A stretch of DNA of 64,000 nt from Eledone cirrhosa (taxonomy: Eukaryota), in NCBI GenBank assembly GCA_964016885.1, contig OZ024746.1, positions 101,928,001 to 101,992,000 of the forward strand, read 5' to 3'. Under the pieces are notes generated by a model, which had not been told where the DNA came from, ran no database searches, and saw only the letters and a program-made list of their open reading frames with translations. Position numbers and translations under genes: made by a program. Shown one piece after another: positions 3,054-21,074 of this stretch. Position 1 is the first letter of the stretch. Every line of letters starts with the position of its first letter.

Positions 3054-3724
3054 GGGAAAAGGAAGAGGAAAAGGAAAGGGAAAAAGAAAAGGAGGAGAGC
3101 ACAAGCACGGACCTGAAAGAAAATGATATACCCTCCGCTACAGGCAGGGAGGGCAGGCCGGGCAACCAACAAGCTAAGGGCAAAGGTGAAAAGCGAAATC
3201 ACCTTCCGAAGGAGAACCAAGCGCAGAGGGACCAGTGGACAACTGTTCAAAGAAAGAACAGAAAGCACCGAGACACTGGGAGCAAAAAACACCAAGTAAT
3301 GTGCAAGTTTTTCAAGAACGGGACATGCTGGCATGGAGAGACAGGGATGGGATGCAGATTCGCCCACCCTAGGTCTCAAACGAACTATGCCCATCATACT
3401 CGCGCAACATGCCCCAGCCAAAGCCGAAATAAGCCGCTCCAGAAGTATGCTGATGTCGCGCGTGCTGCACCAACAAGGAGAAGGCACGCACATGCCGACG
3501 AGATACAGATGGCAGCAGCAGATCAGAAAAATTTTTTAGTGATGGCAGAGAAGATTGTGAGACAGCTGACCTGGCTGCATCGTCTCCAGAGCCAGGGTCA
3601 TCCACACCAGCACTCGAGACCACCGCAGTTAAGGGACCCAGATTGGCCGCCGCTGACACCAGACCAGGTGTCATACCGACAGCCATTACTGGCACCCCAA
3701 AAGTCACACCAGTGCTGCTGCTGA
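3054..3724 (+). CDS. Family A ORF1, C-terminal part (CCCH zinc finger)
   Basis: Non-repetitive end of track ORF 2402..3724: [22 protein letters not shown] finger, ends SHQCCC*. No start codon because the element is truncated at the TA tract. Confidence 0.75.
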
Positions 3725-6684
3725 ATGTCAGGGGCCTGGTGAAACTCAGCAACATGAGTAAAATTTCCTACCTGGGAGACTTAGCCATAAGCAATCAAGC
3801 ACTATGCATGGCACTAACCGAAACGCACCTGACAAGCAGTATAGCAGATGCAGAAATACATATACCGAAATATACTGTATTTCGTTCGGACAGGAAGGAG
3901 AGAACTCATGGTGGGGTTGCTCTGTATATCCGTGAAGATGTCACACCAATTGTACTGTTGACACATTCAAACTCAGTCTGTGACACACTGATAATACATA
4001 TGAAGCAACTACAGACGGTAATATGTGTCACATATCGGCCGCCCGATGCCCCCAGTCATGAGGGTAAATTTGAGGATAGCCTAAGTAGGATAGAAGAGGT
4101 CCTTGACAAACTGGACCAGGGTCTCAACATCCTACTGCTGGGAGACTTCAACCTACCAAAGGTCAAATGGCCTGAGGGCCACCTCCTCCCTGGAATGACG
4201 TCAATAGAACAGAGACAGACGGAATCCCTGCTGGCCCTCACACACAGGCTGTTCATGGAGCAAGCAATACTCCTCCCAACAAGAGGCGAAAATGTCCTGG
4301 ACCTCTGTTTTACAAACAACGAAGTGCTCATCCACAATGTAAAGGTGACACCAACAATTCTCTCGGATCATAACTTGGTAGAGCTAATGATATGTGGTCC
4401 AAGAGAACCAACAGAGACAAAACCACCAAGAAGCTCCGGGACGCTATCCAGCCTTAACTTCTACGGGGCTGACTGGAAGAAGATTAAGAGTGAAATCCGG
4501 AAGCAAACATGGAGTGCAAACATCGCCACACAAGACACTAACACACAATTTCAACACTTCATGACAACGATACACACCATATGCAAAAAGTGTGTCCCGG
4601 AGAAAGAGGCAAACAGACACAAAAATCTTATTCCCAGAGATAGGAAAATCCTTATGAGACGTAGAACTAAACTCTCAAACCAGTTGAATAGTCAACAAAA
4701 CCAAAACAAGAAGGAATCCTATTTGAAACGTGCACTACTTGACACCGAGATTGCACTCAAGCTTTCACATGAGAATGAGAGGGCAAGGAAAGAGAACAGG
4801 GCCATAGAAAACATTAAAACAAACCCTAAGGCCTTCTTTAAATTTGCAAAAGAAACTGCCTCAGTACACTGCAAGATTGGACCACTCTTCCACACGGACG
4901 GTTCATTAACCGAAAATCCCCAAGAGATATGTGAAATACTGAACGAACAGTACAAAAGTGTCTTCACATGTCCACTGAGGCACATGCAAATAACGAAGCC
5001 AGAGGAGTTCTTTGATGCCACAACACTACATCAAGAAATGGCAACCATCAACCACATAGACATAACGGAGGAGGATGTGGTGTACGCCATTGATGAAATT
5101 AGAACAGACTCGGCTGCTGGACCTGATGGATTCCCAGCAGTTCTCCTAAAAATATGTAAGCGGGCCTTAGCAACTCCACTGAAGATGCTCTTCAGAAGCT
5201 CCTTGGCTAGCGGTGTACTACCCAGGGAGCTGAAAGAAGGCACAATATGCCCTATCCATAAAGGAGGTAGTAGAGCGGAGGCCAAGAACTATAGGCCAGT
5301 CTCCCTGACGTCGCATATCAGTAAGGTCATGGAGCGAGTCGTCAGAAAGAAACTAATCACTTTCCTCGAAGAAAATGACCGCCTGACTAGCACGCAACAT
5401 GGCTTCCGCCCAGGAAGAAGCTGCCTTACACAGCTGCTACATCACTACGACTGGGTACTGAGACAGCTACTAGACAGCTGACATGTAGACGTGATATATC
5501 TTGACTTTGCGAAGGCCTTTGACAAGGTCGACCACGGAATGATATGTCACAAACTACACGGACTCGGCATAACTGGAAAAGTAGGTGAGTGGCTGCATGG
5601 CTTCCTGAGGGACAGAAGCCAGGCAGTCGCAGCAAATGGGGCCCTCTCGAGGGAAACACCGATAACAAGTGGGGTGCCTCAGGGGACAGTCCTAGGACCA
5701 CTACTGTTTTTGGTGGCTCTCTCGGACATGCCCTCTGTGGTGCATGCAACAACATCCCTCACTAGCTATGCTGATGACACTAAGGTAGCACAGGCAATCA
5801 AAAACCCGGCTGACGCTGCCCTCTTACAGCAGGATCTGGATGCCATATACAGATGGGCGGAAGAAAACAACATGCAGTTTAATGCTGGCAAATTTCAAGC
5901 CCTACAATACAAACCTGCAAACACAAACACAAATATAGCGGAACACAGCTACACAGGACCAGGAGGGACCGATATCCCCGTGTCAAAATCGATACGAGAC
6001 CTGGGCATAGACATGAGCGATGATGCATCTTTTTCTTCACACATCATGAAGGTGGCGACAGCATGTAGACGATTCGCTGGCTGGATCTTGAGGACTTTCC
6101 TTACAAGAGATCGAGACACCATGTTGACACTGTGGAGGACTTTTGTCCTAAGCCGCCTGGACTACTGCTCCCAGCTGTGGTCACCCCATAGTGTCAAACT
6201 AACCACAGAGCTTGAGGCAATCCAGCGAAGCTACACCAAGAGGATTGCCAAGATGAGGGAGACAAGCTACTGGGAGAGGCTGAAGGAACTGAACCTCTAC
6301 TCCTTGGAGCGAAGACGGGAGAGATACGCAGTGATCTACATGTGGAAAATCCTGGAGGGACTAGCACCAAACTTTGGCATTGGGAGCTGGACCAACCGTC
6401 GAACAGGACGTCACTGTGTGGTGCCAAAGGTCCCGTCTTCCACATCTAGAATAAGGAGCAGGTATTGCAATAGCCTGGGATTCAAGGGCCCTCAACTCTT
6501 CAACAGGCTGCCGAGGCATCTGCGAGACTTGCATGACGTGGAGGTGGATGTCTTTAAGAAACATCTCGACACGTTGTTATCCAGGATCCCGGATGAGCCC
6601 ACAGCAAGACACGAGGGAAACCTAAGGGCAGCAGCAACAAACTCCCTCCTACACCAGTGGCCAACCTATACAGGCTGGAGATAA
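3643..6684 (+). pseudogene. Family A ORF2 (APE endonuclease + RT), interrupted by one in-frame TGA at 5479-5481
   Basis: EN motifs LLNVRG, LTETHL, YRPP, GDFN, LDLCF, SDH; RT motifs [32 protein letters not shown]. Track ORFs 3643..5481 and 5491..6684 are in the same frame, and the second copy has TCA (Ser) at this codon. Confidence 0.92.
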
Positions 6685-6758
6685 AATGTGTAGCAACAAG
6701 GGCGGTGCCCCAGCATGGCCTCAGCCGGATGGCTGAAACAGGTAAAAGAGTAAAAGAG

Positions 6759-7571
<813 letters not shown>

Positions 7572-7645
7572 ATAAAGGACGTAAAATAAGAAAATATTTT
7601 TTTAAAAAAAATTTAAAAAAAAATTTTTTTCTTACTTAAATTTTC

Positions 7646-7727
7646 ACTCCAACTAATTAGTTTCTGCAATGGGATAAAGACAGTTATGTAATCCAACTGT
7701 CGAGAATTCATTGCGTCATCAGGAAGT
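7646..7727 (-). ncRNA. Type I hammerhead ribozyme (predicted), copy 1
   Basis: Minus strand reads ACUUC-CUGAUGA-C-GCAAUG...CAUUGC-A-GAAA-CUAAUUA-GUU/GGAGU. Stem I is ACUUC:GGAGU; stem II is GCAAUG:CAUUGC extended by GACAGUU:AACUGUC; stem III is the palindrome ACUAAUUAGU. The pair closing stem II next to the core is a C-A mismatch. Confidence 0.72.
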
Positions 7728-8204
7728 CTATTCTCAGTTAAGTCTCCAGGCAATGCGCGGACACTGGCGGCTCATATAAAAATAATAATAATTCGGTAGA
7801 TCGAACAGCTTGCGAGGACTGAATTCTATGTACCGAAATTCTCACTGCTTCAAGTCAAATGGCCGATTCTAAAGAATCAATCACGTGACACAGAGGCTAG
7901 TTAGAAGGAATGGGATGGTAAGATGACTGACGCCTACTAACACCCCAAAAAAAATTTTTTTAGAAGTGGTTTTGACAAGTTTGCTCGACAAATCAGTGAT
8001 TTGGAGATAAATATAGATAATTTAATATATCAACTAACATAAGCGCACAGATGCACGCCCATGCCAGCAAATACACAGGTTATGTCATAGTACCTAGGTG
8101 GTTCAATGCAGGAGAATGCAGAACAATAATATAAAGGACGTAAAATAAGAAAATATTTTTTTAAAAAAAATTTTAAAAAAAATTTTTTTCTTACTTAAAT
8201 TTTC

Positions 8205-8286
8205 ACTCCAACTAATTAGTTTCTGCAATGGGATAAAGACAGTTATGTAATCCAACTGTCGAGAATTCATTGCGTCATCAGGAAGT
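8205..8286 (-). ncRNA. Type I hammerhead ribozyme (predicted), copy 2
   Basis: Same sequence as 7646-7727, offset by 559 bp. Confidence 0.72.
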
Positions 8287-8763
8287 CTATTCTCAGTTAA
8301 GTCTCCAGGCAATGCGCGGACACTGGCGGCTCATATAAAAATAATAATAATTCGGTAGATCGAACAGCTTGCGAGGACTGAATTCTATGTACCGAAATTC
8401 TCACTGCTTCAAGTCAAATGGCCGATTCTAAAGAATCAATCACGTGACACAGAGGCTAGTTAGAAGGAATGGGATGGTAAGATGACTGACGCCTACTAAC
8501 ACCCCAAAAAAAATTTTTTTAGAAGTGGTTTTGACAAGTTTGCTCGACAAATCAGTGATTTGGAGATAAATATAGATAATTTAATATATCAACTAACATA
8601 AGCGCACAGATGCACGCCCATGCCAGCAAATACACAGGTTATGTCATAGTACCTAGGTGGTTCAATGCAGGAGAATGCAGAACAATAATATAAAGGACGT
8701 AAAATAAGAAAATATTTTTTTAAAAAAAATTTTAAAAAAAATTTTTTTCTTACTTAAATTTTC

Positions 8764-8845
8764 ACTCCAACTAATTAGTTTCTGCAATGGGATAAAGACA
8801 GTTATGTAATCCAACTGTCGAGAATTCATTGCGTCATCAGGAAGT
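8764..8845 (-). ncRNA. Type I hammerhead ribozyme (predicted), copy 3
   Basis: Same sequence as 7646-7727, offset by 1118 bp. Confidence 0.72.
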
Positions 8846-9145
8846 CTATTCTCAGTTAAGTCTCCAGGCAATGCGCGGACACTGGCGGCTCATATAAAAA
8901 TAATAATAATTCGGTAGATCGAACTAATTGCAGAAACTAATTAGTTGGAGTGAAAATTTAAGTAAGAAAAAAATTTTTTTTTAAATTTTTTTTAAAAAAA
9001 TATTTTCTTATTTTACGTCCTTTATATTATTGTTCTGCATTCTCCTGCATTGAACCACCTAGGTACTATGACATAACCTGTGTATTTGCTGGCATGGGCG
9101 TGCATCTGTGCGCTTATGTTAGTTGATATATTAAATTATCTATAT

Positions 9146-11130
<1,985 letters not shown>

Positions 11131-11168
11131 TGTGCAGTTGAGCAGTTGAAGTATAAGGACGTGTTTTT
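11131..11168 (+). promoter_or_regulatory. Putative internal Pol II promoter of LINE B (Inr-like CAGTT + DPE-like GGACGTG)
   Basis: GCAGTTG occurs twice at the 5' junction and GGACGTGTT at 11157, about 27 nt into the element. This matches the arrangement known from jockey-superfamily LINE promoters. Confidence 0.5.
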
Positions 11169-11841: not shown

Positions 11842-13008
11842 ATGGCTAACCAGCAAAAATCCAAACAGAACTGGTCTGATAATGAAATCGACATTCTAAT
11901 AAACACATGGCATTGCCTTTCCCAAACAGAAAATATAGATGCTTCATCTCTGAACGACATTGCTAAACGTACAGTTCAATTTTTGAAAACTCGATCTGAA
12001 CAACAGATTCAAAATAAATTAAAGCAAATCGAAATTGCTTTTAAATTAATCAATAAACATTTGGATAAACTACGGTGTGTTTTCTCTTCGAATGCTGTCC
12101 AGCAGCAGCAACAACAACAACAGCAGCTACAACAGCAACAACAACAACAGCTACAACAACAACATCAACAACAGCTACAACAACAACAACAACATCAACA
12201 TCAGCAACAACAACAGTGTGAACCACTCCTTGATTCATCAACAATGGCCGATCTACTAAATGAAACTATTGACCCCCCAGTAGCCTCTGTCTCACAGCAT
12301 GAAACGCCACATCCTTTCTCTGGCCCAGCAGTCCAATCATCACCACTGCCAACATCTCTGCCTACTACTACTACTACTACTACAACATTTTTGTCCACTG
12401 CTATGTCAAGGAATTTACCTTCTAATACCAGAACAAGAACTCTCCCTCCCACAGTCCACAAAGGTCGTCAAATCCTACCCAAACCATCATCTACACCTCT
12501 CACAACACCCACACCCATATACCCACCCACTCGAAACCCCATCATTTGCCGCTACTCTCTACGCTATAGAATATGTACGGATAGTGGCTGCAAATTCACC
12601 CATTTACCTAGGACAAAACGATCTATCCCCACAAACAGCCACCACCATAATACATACTCTAATTTAACACCAACACAACCACCAATAACTCAAACAAGGA
12701 ATCCACAAATCTGCCGTTTTTCCCTGCGAGACAGATTGTGTTTAGACCGGGATTGTCCCTTTACCCATCTCCCGGGGACCCGTCGGATAAATGAAAATAA
12801 AATTAAAAATAAAAGCAAAAACAAAAACCATAACCTACATAAAAATAACCACTACCACAGTCACCAACAGTCTTCTAAACAGGAAACTTCTTCCTCTTTT
12901 TTAGCCATAATGAATCTGGCAAAAGAACTGGAAAAAAACATTCGAGCTATCACCCAGCACCACCCTCCACTATCACCCCACTGCACAAACTCCCATTGCT
13001 GCCATTAA
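11842..13008 (+). CDS. LINE B ORF1: Myb/SANT(trihelix)-like N-terminus, polyQ, Pro/Thr-rich linker, two CCCH fingers
   Basis: 388-aa ATG ORF; WSDNEIDILINTW...RSEQQIQNKLKQI; CRYSLRYRICTDSGCKFTH and CRFSLRDRLCLDRDCPFTH. Confidence 0.85.
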   Translation: MANQQKSKQNWSDNEIDILINTWHCLSQTENIDASSLNDIAKRTVQFLKTRSEQQIQNKLKQIEIAFKLINKHLDKLRCVFSSNAVQQQQQQQQQLQQQQQQQLQQQHQQQLQQQQQHQHQQQQQCEPLLDSSTMADLLNETIDPPVASVSQHETPHPFSGPAVQSSPLPTSLPTTTTTTTTFLSTAMSRNLPSNTRTRTLPPTVHKGRQILPKPSSTPLTTPTPIYPPTRNPIICRYSLRYRICTDSGCKFTHLPRTKRSIPTNSHHHNTYSNLTPTQPPITQTRNPQICRFSLRDRLCLDRDCPFTHLPGTRRINENKIKNKSKNKNHNLHKNNHYHSHQQSSKQETSSSFLAIMNLAKELEKNIRAITQHHPPLSPHCTNSHCCH

Positions 13009-16000
13009 CAAACAAACAAATTAACAACACACCAAAACAATTAAAACCATCCACTCTCGCCTCTACATTTTTGCTTAACGCCCAAGGCATCAGCCCTTCC
13101 ACCAATACTCAAAAATGGAAGATCAAATTCCTGGAGGACTGGATTGATGTCCATCCAAACCACATCCCTTTCTTCGTCCTCACTGAAACCCATCTCGGTA
13201 ACCTCCACTTGGAAGCCGAGGTGAAAGTGAAAAATTTCAAAGCCATCCGTGCTGATCGCGCTGGCAGAAGAAAGGGCGGAACTGCCATTTATGTCCATAA
13301 TTCTTTCTCAACAGAGGCTATGAACATATTCACTAATGGATACTGTGAGGCAGTCACTGTATTCAGTCAAACCAACAACCTATTAGTAGTTGGGCTCTAT
13401 AGGCCACCCCAAACGCCTGTACCATGCTTCAAGGAATGCCTCAACAGCATAAAGTGTTTCATCCAAGAGTGTCACCCTGACAACATCTTAATGATGGGGG
13501 ACTTCAACCTGCCCGGAGTTGACTGGTCCACAAACACCCTGCCACCAGGTTCTTCTGCCTCAACCTCTGACAGGGAAGCTGTGGAATCGCTTCTTGACTT
13601 CATGGATGATTTCTTCCTATCCCAACTAGTGCTCGAACCAACGAGGTGCCACAAAAACGTCCTAGACTTAATTTTCAGCAATCACACTGACAATATCCAC
13701 AATATTGCAGTGGAGAAAACTCTACTCTCTGATCATGACATGGTTCTCTGTGATCTGAGATTCCACCGTCCAATATACAAACCCAATGTCATTTCTCCTG
13801 TCCATCCGTTTGACGCTATGGATTTCCACAATGCAAACTGGGAAGCGATCAGTCATGATCTTGCACATGTCGACTGGTCCTTCACGCACACTCATACACC
13901 CACTAACATCAAAAAGTCCTGGCAGACATTTGTGGACACTGTTACAAACATATGTGCTAAACACACCCCATTAAGAACTATAAACAAATCTAAGAGCAGA
14001 ATCCCTAGAAATAGAAAAACGCTCATCAGAAAAATTAAGAGAACGAACAAAAAAATCAACAATCTGAAATACTGTCAGCAGCAACACATCAACTTGACTG
14101 CCATTTCATCACTAGAGATTAAAAAACATAACCTCCAAAACAACATAATGTCCCTCATCAACAATCAGAGAAGAGCTGAAGAGGCCTGGGCCATTGAGAA
14201 GATCAAACTCAATCCCAAAGTGTTCTTTTCATTTGCAAAAAAACACAAAATCACTGGCTCTACTGTTGGCCCTCTAATTGATGAAAATGCTCTAATTGAT
14301 GAAAATGGCACTCTTCAAGACAATGCTAAAACCATGGGTGAGATACTGCAGAAACAATACTGCTCTGTTTTCAGCAATCCTGATATGGCCGATCTGGGCT
14401 GTATCGGCGATGTTACTCCCCATTACACCTTATCGGACATAACGTTTGGCGCCCCTGATGTCTTGGCGGCAATAAAGGAAATCAAGCATAATTCAGCAGT
14501 AGGTCCCGATAGGTTCCCTGCTTGTGTCTTGAAGGCGTGTCAACACCAACTTGCTTCTCCTCTTGCCAATCTGTGGCGGAACTCACTGGATGCTGGATAT
14601 GTGCCAGAAAACCTTCTATCCCAGTCTGTTGTCCCAGTTTTCAAAAAGGGAAACAAATCCCTTGCCGTGAATTACCGTCCAATCTCACTCACCTCTCATA
14701 TCATTAAGGTATTTGAGCGAGTGGTGAGATCGCGAATGACCCACTTCCTTGAGAGTAACAATATGCTGAACTCCAACCAGCATGGATTCCGTAATGGAAG
14801 GGATTGCCTGACGCAACTACTGCATCACTTTGATGACATTTTGAGAGCCTTGGGAGAGGGTTCCAACACTGATGTTATCTACCTTGATTTCAGCAAGGCC
14901 TTTGACAGGGTTGATCATAACCTTCTACTGAGAAAGCTGTCCAATATTGGTGTCACTGGAAAGCTGCTGCAGTGGATCAAGAGCTTCCTGTCAAACAGAA
15001 CCCAACATGTTGTAGTTGAGGGAGTCAAATCAAGCCCAGCCAAAGTCAGTAGTGGAGTCCCACAAGGCACTGTGTTGGGCCCACTTCTCTTCATCATCTA
15101 TATTAATGACATCACTGACATCATCAAACACAGCAACATTAAAATTTTCGCTGATGATTCCAAGCTCCAAAAGGTCATCAATGGCGTGGATGACCGGATA
15201 AGCCTTCAGTCAGACCTACTGGCTGTTACCCAATGGGCAGAAAAGAACAACATGTTACTGAACGAAGACAAATTCGAACTGATCCACTTTGGAAAAGAGG
15301 ATGCTCTGAAACTCCCGTACTCCCTTCCCTCCGGGGAAACTCTCGTGGCATCTAACAACATCAGAGACTTGGGAGTAACCGTGGACAGCAACATAAGCTG
15401 GACCACGCATATAAGCAGCAAAGTTGACATGGCCCGCAGAATGTGTTCCTGGATCCTCAGAACCTTCCAGTCGAGAGATTCCCGCACCATTATCCTTCTC
15501 TTCTCTACTTTCGCCCGACCACACCTTGAATACTGTTGTCCACTGTGGTCTCCCCACACGAAACAAAGTATCATGAAACTTGAAGCTCCTCAAAGGGCAA
15601 TCACAAAAAAGATAGATGGCATGTCAGACCTTGACTACTGGGGTCGATTGGAAAACCTGAAACTTTACTCACTCCAACGTCGCCGTGAGCGTTATATTAT
15701 CTGCATGATGTGGAAAATGTTCCATCATCACTGCCCAAATGATGTTGGCATCGCCTTCAAGATACACCCAAGGCTTGGGCCCCGTGCTATCCGTCCCATT
15801 CAAAAATCTAAATCGCAACTCATAACAACAATACGGCACAATTATTTCACCTCAATCGGCCCTGCTCTCTTCAACATCACACCAGGACACGTCAAAACAG
15901 AAACTGACCACACAAAATTCAAGAAATCTTTGGACAAATTCCTCCAAGTAATCCCGGACAAACCACCCACACCCGGATATGTCTCCGCAAACAGTAATTC

Positions 16001-16034
16001 TCTTCTCGAATGGGCCATGGTGCCCAAATCCTGA
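12996..16034 (+). CDS. LINE B ORF2 (APE endonuclease + RT), no AUG before the EN domain
   Basis: LLNAQG, LTETHL, YRPP, GDFN, LDLIF, SDH; [32 protein letters not shown]. The frame is open from 12879 and the track start is TTG. An in-frame 18-bp duplication at 14272-14307 gives [12 protein letters not shown]. Confidence 0.93.
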
Positions 16035-19210: not shown

Positions 19211-21074
19211 TCTCTTTTACTCTTTTACTCTTTTACCTGTTTCAGCCATCCGGCTGAGGCCATGCTGGCGCACCGCCCTTGTTGCTACACATTTTATCTC
19301 CAGCCTGTATAGGTTGGCCACTGGTGTAGGAGGGAGTTTGTTGCTGCTGCCCTTAGGTTTCCCTCGTGTCTTGCTGTGGGCTCATCCGGGATCCTGGATA
19401 ACAACGTGTCGAGATGTTTCTTAAAGACATCCACCTCCACGTCATGCAAGTCTCGCAGATGCCTCGGCAGCCTGTTGAAGAGTTGAGGGCCCTTGAATCC
19501 CAGGCTATTGCAATACCTGCTCCTTATTCTAGATGTGGAAGACGGGACCTTTGGCACCACACAGTGACGTCCTGTTCGACGGTTGGTCCAGCTCCCAATG
19601 CCAAAGTTTGGTGCTAGTCCCTCCAGGATTTTCCACATGTAGATCACTGCGTATCTCTCCCGTCTTCGCTCCAAGGAGTAGAGGTTCAGTTCCTTCAGCC
19701 TCTCCCAGTAGCTTGTCTCCCTCATCTTGGCAATCCTCTTGGTGTAGCTTCGCTGGATTGCCTCAAGCTCTGTGGTTAGTTTGACACTATGGGGTGACCA
19801 CAGCTGGGAGCAGTAGTCCAGGCGGCTTAGGACAAAAGTCCTCCACAGTGTCAACATGGTGTCTCGATCTCTTGTAAGGAAAGTCCTCAAGATCCAGCCA
19901 GCGAATCGTCTACATGCTGTCGCCACCTTCATGATGTGTGAAGAAAAAGATGCATCATCGCTCATGTCTATGCCCAGGTCTCGTATCGATTTTGACACGG
20001 GGATATCGGTCCCTCCTGCTCCTGTGTAGCTGTGTTCCGCTATATTTGTGTTTGTGTTTGCAGGTTTGTATTGTAGGGCTTGGAATTTGCCAGCATTAAA
20101 CTGCATGTTGTTTTCTTCCGCCCATCTGTATATGGCATCCAGATCCTGCTGTAAGAGGGCAGCGTCAGCCGGGTTTTTGATTGCCTGTGCTACCTTAGTG
20201 TCATCAGCATAGCTAGTGAGGGATGTTGTTGCATGCACCACAGAGGGCATGTCCGAGAGAGCCACCAAAAACAGTAGTGGTCCCAGGACTGTCCCCTGAG
20301 GCACCCCACTTGTTATCGGTGTTTCCCTCGAGAGGGCCCCATTTGCTGCGACTGCCTGGCTTCTGTCCCTCAGGAAGCCATGCAGCCACTCACCTACTTT
20401 TCCAGTTATGCCGAGTCCGTGTAGTTTGTGACATATCATTCCGTGGTCGACCTTGTCAAAGGCCTTCGCAAAGTCAAGATATATCACGTCTACATGTGAG
20501 CTGTCTAGTAGCTGTCTCAGTACCCAGTCGTAGTGATGTAGCAGCTGTGTAAGGCAGCTTCTTCCTGGGCGGAAGCCATGCTGCGTGCTAGTCAGGCGGT
20601 CATTTTCTTCGAGGAAAGTGATTAGTTTCTTTCTGACGACTCGCTCCATGACCTTACTGATATGCGACGTCAGGGAGACTGGCCTATAGTTCTTGGCCTC
20701 CGCTCTACTACCTCCTTTATGGATAGGGCATATTGTGCCTTCTTTCAGCTCCCTGGGTAGTACACCGCTAGCCAAGGAGCTTCTGAAGAGCATCTTCAGT
20801 GGAGTTGCTAAGGCCCGCTTACATATTTTTAGGAGAACTGCTGGGAATCCATCAGGTCCAGCAGCCGAGTCTGTTCTAATTTCATCAATGGCGTACACCA
20901 CATCCTCCTCCGTTATGTCTATGTGGTTGATGGTTGCCATTTCTTGATGTAGTGTTGTGGCATCAAAGAACTCCTCTGGCTTCGTTATTTGCATGTGCCT
21001 CAGTGGACATGTGAAGACACTTTTGTACTGTTCGTTCAGTATTTCACATATCTCTTGGGGATTTTCGGTTAATG
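19211..21074 (-). mobile_element. CR1-group LINE family A, copy 2 (5'-truncated; RT part intact)
   Basis: Reverse complement of 4904-6758 with about 6 substitutions seen by eye. ORF open to the stop at 19294; tail has three GTAAAAGA units. Confidence 0.95.

Follow-up and report, generated by a model that had tools for sequence, protein, structure and literature searches.

A dispersed hammerhead retrozyme of Eledone cirrhosa with two fixed, paired 3' ends and its probable mobilisation by PLEs

Results

The window examined here is a stretch of 64,000 nucleotides of Eledone cirrhosa DNA (contig OZ024746.1, positions 101,928,001 to 101,992,000). A two-armed non-coding insertion lies at its positions 7570 to 9145, and its features are collected in Table 1. 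Three type I hammerhead motifs, identical letter for letter, are found on the minus strand of the long arm. Their CUGAUGA boxes start at 8840, 8281 and 7722 and the GAAACUAAUUAGUUGGAGU motifs at 8782, 8223 and 7664, in both cases with a spacing of exactly 559 nt. Self-comparison at lag 559 gave 99.87% identity over 796 nt, with a single mismatch at 7615, and the longest ORF within the unit is 69 aa. The 559-nt monomer at 8210..8768 folds better than shuffles, both as a linear (z -4.0) and as a circular molecule (z -3.7).

Much of this had been described correctly in a first-pass annotation: the three identical motifs and their spacing, the lack of a long ORF, the predicted cleavage positions, and the stems, namely stem I (ACUUC:GGAGU), stem II (GCAAUG:CAUUGC), a hairpin (GACAGUU:AACUGUC) and the palindrome ACUAAUUAGU. 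Its interval, 7572..8924, held the tandem units but stopped short, missing both the flanking (TA)n and an inverted head-to-head arm of the same unit that reaches 9145 and contains the hammerhead 3' half only. Both outer ends of the two-armed element adjoin long (TA)n tracts, which on either flank would mask any target-site duplication.

Table 1. Features of the insertion in window coordinates. Unit numbering starts at the predicted cleavage site (position 1 = 8768).
Feature	Position	Strand	Remarks
(TA)n-rich tract, proximal end	6759..7569	.	target site, possibly lengthened at insertion
Long arm	7570..8924	-	1355 nt = 2.4 units
Long arm 5' end			truncated at unit position 404
Long arm 3' end			proximal fixed site, unit position 81, ...CUUUAUAU
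Hammerhead 1, type I	8764..8845	-	predicted cleavage 8769/8768 after GUU
Hammerhead 2	8205..8286	-	predicted cleavage 8210/8209
Hammerhead 3	7646..7727	-	predicted cleavage 7651/7650
Full 559-nt monomer	8210..8768	-	position 1 = 8768
Second full monomer	7651..8209	-	
118-nt tail between the two fixed 3'-end sites	8570..8687	-	unit 82-199
Predicted A/U-rich hairpin	8702..8755	-	unit 14-67
Head-to-head inversion junction	8925..8926	.	2 extra nt
Short inverted arm	8927..9145	+	219 nt, unit position 540 to 199
Short inverted arm 3' end			distal fixed site, unit position 199, ...AUCUAUAU
(TA)n-rich tract, distal end	9146..11131	.	

Other repeats share the window. An array of about 2009 copies of a 16-bp unit (89% matches) fills 32 kb at 29429-61548. 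LINE-type elements with AP endonuclease and RT were found at 3454-6684 and 12879-16034 (+) and at 19226-21074; one has a stop at about 5480 and one a 1051-aa open frame. The element at 3454-6684 terminates at the TA tract where the retrozyme inserted, and the segments 4570-6752 and 19226-21074 are both 98% alike to one same copy elsewhere. Inside the retrozyme unit, a GTCACGTGA(T/C)TGATTCTTT block at positions 327-345 (window 8424-8442) is conserved across subfamilies A, B and C, and resembles an E-box promoter element.

The first-pass annotation had proposed counting genomic copies. Exact matches to a 25-mer spanning the cleavage site number 8,625 genome-wide, against none for its reversed control, so the motif is not due to chance. 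Searching with the unit gave 243 matches in the 40 candidates scored out of 628, and near-full units among the matches listed are 95-100% identical. Two older subfamilies, B (about 538 nt, 81% alike to the unit) and C (about 525 nt, about 73% alike), were both found without using the hammerhead motif, and 40 loci drawn in chromosomal order from the 25-mer matches form a continuum of 68-99% identity. The GC content of the unit is 35%. It is thus a dispersed, young, non-coding multicopy family with thousands of copies. Contigs from four runs contain tandem junctions and family variants, and are silent on ends, strand and level; three low-share runs under other organism labels (2-7 records each) were left out as evidence. 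Duplicate loci (L099, L101, L169, L173) were dropped before all counts, as was L098 in the (CT)n count.

The hammerhead combines CUGANGA, GAAA and NUH with an extra base between positions 9 and 10.1, a G10.1-C11.1 pair and a palindromic stem III, and is in these respects of the PLE-type (minimal) kind. The last three of these features, with the extra base following A9, are those given for PLE hammerheads, which act weakly and as dimers (Cervera 2014). The present family carries an additional A before G12 that we did not find described there. This A, the C after A9 and the GUU triplet are kept in subfamilies A, B and C. What the first-pass annotation took for possible defects of this copy (a C-A mismatch closing stem II, and GUU) is therefore a variant of the family and not damage. 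The core variant may be listed in Lunse 2017, and supplementary data of Cervera 2014/2020 and of Li 2026 could also be relevant to it.

To assess stem covariation, another of the checks proposed at the outset, we chose a diverse set of 26 among 89 distinct hammerhead sequences. Among them, stem II pair 18-68 is UA in 12, CG in 10 and AU in 4, pair 21-65 is GC in 14 and UA in 11, and three pairs of the distal hairpin have changed on both sides. The covariation score was 0.273, compared with at most 0.08 for slid partners. Because 23 of the 26 rows came from loci chosen by the 25-mer and all were core-filtered, invariance of the core and of stem III is partly by construction; we count as evidence the covariation of stem II and the hairpin, and related sequences inflate the shuffle control. 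Covariation of stem II across subfamilies 68-99% alike indicates that the ribozyme fold is under selection.

The palindrome is predicted to form a duplex of -9.0 kcal/mol and no stable hairpin. The MFE fold of the hammerhead alone is weak (z -1.5) and differs from the active fold. A covariance-model search of Rfam, also proposed in the first-pass annotation, detected no hammerhead, whether at the gathering score or with E<=10, and the matches by E-value were miRNA models on TA repeats. No cleavage was reported for 8 of 9 retrozyme dimers by Li et al. 2026 (10.64898/2026.07.22.740005). The original reading of the locus as a retrozyme with dimer-type hammerheads is supported, and by stronger genomic evidence than was available to the first-pass annotation.

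In the 38 young arrays, every visible 3' end falls at unit position 81 or 199 and is followed by (TA)n; both sites end in UAUAU. Twenty-five of these arrays are two-armed insertions, and in all 23 with both ends in view 81 is paired with 199. The 13 single-armed arrays end at 81 (11) or 199 (2). An anchor-based caller run on 133 loci of all subfamilies made 65 calls (64 unique), all of them proximal plus distal, with no proximal-proximal and no distal-distal pair. With five insertions missed by the caller added, the union is 69 unlike-end pairs in 69 two-armed insertions. Strict pairing would follow if one dimer uses both sites on one RNA. An A/U-rich hairpin is predicted at unit 14-67 in all three subfamilies (A, B and C), its end lying about 14 nt upstream of the proximal site. 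The 118-nt tail contains another long predicted hairpin, conserved and with modest covariation (2/27 pairs), which stops about 14 nt upstream of the distal site.

The 5' ends are scattered. Sixty-two truncation points fit a uniform spread (KS p 0.41), with none at unit positions 1-5 and a slight excess around the cleavage site (4 at 1-15, p 0.09; 6 at 535-559, p 0.06). Inversion junctions mostly show 0-14 nt of overlap (microhomology). The footprint of PLE insertion is therefore present in full: 5' truncation, an inverted 5' copy, a tail at one end and an AT-rich target.

Such structures might also arise from one priming event, the inverted arm being made by fold-back or self-priming and the tail by endonuclease resolution of an intermediate. 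This route has been proposed for PLEs (Arkhipova 2013, PMC3846280; Craig 2021, PMC8557442), two junctions use the stem III palindrome (L032, L059) and one insertion has inverted flanks (L113). However, copying back to the end predicts like ends, and they are unlike in 69/69; none of 24 singleton variants is mirrored between arms; arm lengths in L031, L035 and L053 (3/23, by hand) fit neither copying order; and both ends carry primer-like UAUAU microhomology. We consider a single priming event improbable. At L113 (740-800 and 2130-2230) the sequence past the TA tract is the same on both sides, inverted, unlike at other insertions.

Variants within arrays bear on the template. After removal of older-subfamily pieces in L039, L041 and L061 and masking of homopolymer columns, a variant was fixed in all covering units in 62 array-by-site cases, 31 of them across both arms, compared with 2 truly mixed cases and 24 singletons; a further apparent mixture in L064 was a deletion artefact. 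The arms agree in 18/18 cases at site 388 and 20/20 at site 523 (chance about 0.5 each), although a cell that expresses mainly one locus would produce such concordance as well. In L035, L044, L059 and L060 private variants are fixed on both sides of the inversion; L057 has 407C>A fixed, L061 has it as a singleton. Unit junctions are exact in 205/208, and the remaining ones are single substitutions. Mixed arrays are L046 (388 in 2/3 units), L043 (363 in 2/10) and L245, where two hammerheads of different subfamilies stand in one tandem array (435-1315), pointing to a template switch or a heterodimeric template.

Array-private variants fixed in both arms suggest that new variants pass through a monomer and are then re-multiplied, and exact junctions together with the lack of 5' ends at 1-5 favour a circle over jumps between linear ends. 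The same twin priming could operate without any circle, on an uncleaved linear multimer or on a linear monomer with exact jumps. Ribozyme cleavage is dispensable in vitro for the anole PLE (PMC11167929), homogeneous parent arrays yield homogeneous daughters, and the three mixed arrays and the small surplus of 5' ends close to the cleavage site would fit. Nevertheless, a pure multimer route only shortens arrays and cannot fix 8 private variants in all 3-8 units of both arms, jumps predict scars or 5' ends at position 1, and selection on stem II implies that the ribozyme matters. A template of this linear kind is in our judgement unlikely, although clearly a stronger contender than single priming. 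Paired ends and unit homogeneity both support the proposal of the first-pass annotation that a monomer-length template is copied by a PLE-type RT.

Distal ends differ from proximal ones in carrying (CT)n runs. In subfamily B the internal distal site reads AATT CT CT ATAT in 30/30 loci, whereas among 21 unique terminal copies one has no CT, four have a single CT and the others have 4-34, with two or three CT never seen. Expansion depends on the template: (CT)>=4 occurs at 15/19 distal ends with a CUCU template (new runs (CT)5-26), at 3/35 with AUCU, two of the three being mis-assigned to the template of a neighbouring copy, and at 0/12 with CUUU. Another 19 distal ends had no internal template in view, and 4 were expanded. 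All 101 proximal ends are unexpanded, among them 22 from the older subfamily C, which has (TC)3 beside (AT)n. Among non-element (CT)5+(AT)4+ runs, 0/24 are directly preceded by an AT run. Judged from these end sequences, distal (CT)n probably reflects telomerase-like repeat addition at initiation. If repeats are added at the distal end, the flanking (TA)n may be partly new too.

It could instead be argued that the family is a satellite, amplified and homogenised at the DNA level by unequal crossover or gene conversion from dead pLTR fragments, with the hammerhead a relic and (CT)n the product of replication slippage or of pre-existing compound microsatellites. Unequal crossover has been discussed for retrozyme arrays (Li et al. 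2026, 10.64898/2026.07.22.740005), and microsatellites are very abundant in this genome. Such an origin does not account for short dispersed arrays that contain inversions and whose 3' ends are fixed and 5' ends random, nor for compensatory changes in stem II. The 22 unexpanded subfamily C ends and the 24 non-element runs also speak against it, and we regard both its amplification part and its microsatellite part as very improbable.

A partner enzyme was sought with a GIY-YIG scan (best 150 of 10,596 candidates scored) and four protein searches, which yielded PLE families F1-F5. F1 and F2 have an RT, a CxxxCxxC-type linker and GIY-YIG. Autonomous RT plus GIY-YIG elements also pair their own two TATAT sites (14/14 in F2, 7/7 in F4 and 3/3 in F1, the arms being assumed to belong to one insertion), and F2 distal ends carry similar (CT)n runs (L190, L195, L196). 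Across the genome, PLE endonuclease copies of F2 and F4 are numerous and nearly identical, and intact frames of 775 and 784 aa recur among them. By this sequence evidence they appear to have been active very recently, and both are candidate mobilisers of the retrozyme.

Linkage of the unit to a PLE ORF, which the first-pass annotation had suggested looking for, was not borne out: no PLE ORF is joined to the retrozyme element in any of 40 unbiased loci, and the unit has no sequence match to families F1-F5. Hammerhead-like motifs were seen in F1, F2 and F4; they are unlike that of the unit, to which no family could be aligned. Where pieces of the retrozyme lie close to a PLE ORF they are separate insertions, beyond the TA tract in L135 and L189 and on the opposite strand in L085. 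Retrozyme copies are often located in TA tracts that adjoin or terminate PLE copies (L104, L124, L144, L085, L135, L189), as nested insertions into a shared target.

Hammerhead-like motifs with a UUGAAAA core (U3/A8 type) and the palindrome ACCGGU were seen in F1 (L128, L133, L136, L139) and F4 (L213); despite the very young age of F4, its GAAA box is GCAA in the copies seen. Other such motifs lie at L138:7568, L219:6344 and 6843, L129:6700 and 7159, L137:7486 and L140:2358. Two of these form tandem pairs with spacings of about 500 and 459 nt, and are probably further retrozyme families.

Discussion

The class of element described here is already known and its length of 559 nt is ordinary. What appears to be new are the rules of end pairing, unit homogeneity and stutter. 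We hold it highly probable that this is a PLE-mobilised retrozyme. As to how it inserts, the reading we favour, with some reserve, is twin priming by a Neptune-type PLE on one monomer RNA, probably a circle, within a (TA)n tract.

The steps would be as follows. Tandem transcripts may self-cleave as dimers via the palindromic stem III and be ligated into 559-nt circles, which we find reasonably likely. Within a (TA)n tract, the PLE enzyme would cut each of the two strands and start reverse transcription from both nicks on a single monomer RNA. A somewhat better than even case can be made that a PLE protein dimer binds two hairpin-spacer-UAUAU modules on that RNA, so that each nicked ...ATATA-3' end pairs with one UAUAU. 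Both RTs would then run round the circle with strand displacement and detach at random, and microhomology would join the two cDNA 5' ends into head-to-head arms as long as 11 units. Before escape, the distal RT would probably stutter on the first 4-6 template bases.

A wider proposal is that PLEs in general insert by obligate twin priming, a dimer acting on two fixed sites of a single RNA, in this family a circle made by the ribozyme, with telomerase-like repeat addition at the distal active site. We offer it tentatively and would not yet bet on it. Its appeal is that obligate twin priming and repeat addition would explain the tail, the head-to-head inversion and the multi-unit arrays together. 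If true, PLEs would be active writers of new microsatellites across the genome. Our literature searches turned up no paper that describes this family, twin priming in PLEs or the addition of repeats by EN+ PLEs; the supplements of Cervera 2014/2020 and of Li 2026 may contain information on end structures.

The thousands of near-identical copies constitute a record of the insertion process. With a 559-nt non-coding RNA that has two mapped starts, a known (TA)n target, and a genome that also holds young, intact RT-endonuclease ORFs, it can be tested directly how PLE tails and inverted ends arise and whether retrozymes are copied from circles.

Telomerase repeatedly copies a short template onto a DNA 3' end, beside an RNA hairpin and before a template boundary, and LINEs show 3' repeat slippage. 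The (CT)n runs are similar in that a short template would be copied repeatedly onto a DNA 3' end beside an RNA hairpin. They differ in that this would happen at one of two retroposon start sites and be followed by processive copying, and in that the stutter is known here from genomic ends only. If these elements, the closest retroelement relatives of telomerase, do add repeats, this would be relevant to the origins of both telomerase and microsatellites.

Metazoan non-LTR retrozymes (PMC7229834; 10.64898/2026.07.22.740005) share with the present family non-coding tandem units with one type I hammerhead each, low GC, thousands of copies and the presence of PLEs in the genome. The first-pass annotation had thought the monomer long for an animal retrozyme; it lies within the published 51-972 bp (Li et al. 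2026, 10.64898/2026.07.22.740005). Unlike those elements, the family has a hammerhead of the PLE kind, with an extra base after A9 and a 10-nt palindromic stem III; in addition, an A preceding G12 is invariant and the extension of stem II covaries. In PMC7229834 and Li 2026 we found no description, for metazoan non-LTR retrozymes, of fixed paired ends, of inversions or of private variants shared by a whole array. Rolling-circle copying of retrozymes is a hypothesis (Cervera & de la Pena 2020, PMC7229834; Li, Clavereau & Pollet 2026), and it is stated as open, together with the origin of the tail and inverted ends of PLEs (Craig 2021, Arkhipova 2013, Cervera 2020, Frangieh 2024).

EN+ PLEs of the Neptune/Nematis type (PMC8557442; PMC3846280) are alike in their partial tandems, 5' truncation, (TA)n preference, head-to-head inverted 5' copy and tail at one end only. 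The inverted 5' copy is a known PLE trait (Arkhipova 2013, PMC3846280), and the tail is often at one end (Craig 2021, PMC8557442). In contrast, the retrozyme has no ORF, its tail is 118 nt instead of 30-40, and its pairing is strict where theirs is 'often' or 'optional'.

A further parallel in mechanism is PAc, the Poseidon PLE of Anolis. Its tail lies between two internal RT starts, both target strands are cut and extended, and a protein dimer is predicted (Frangieh 2024, PMC11167929). In the retrozyme, too, two putative internal RT starts downstream of the hammerhead bound the tail, and both strands would be extended by a putative dimer. For PAc the uncleaved RNA is the main substrate and no reads ended at the ribozyme site (PMC11167929). 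Moreover, priming there is non-homologous and the starts are not strand-specific, whereas here both sites end in a UAUAU that matches the target, and they are used one each.
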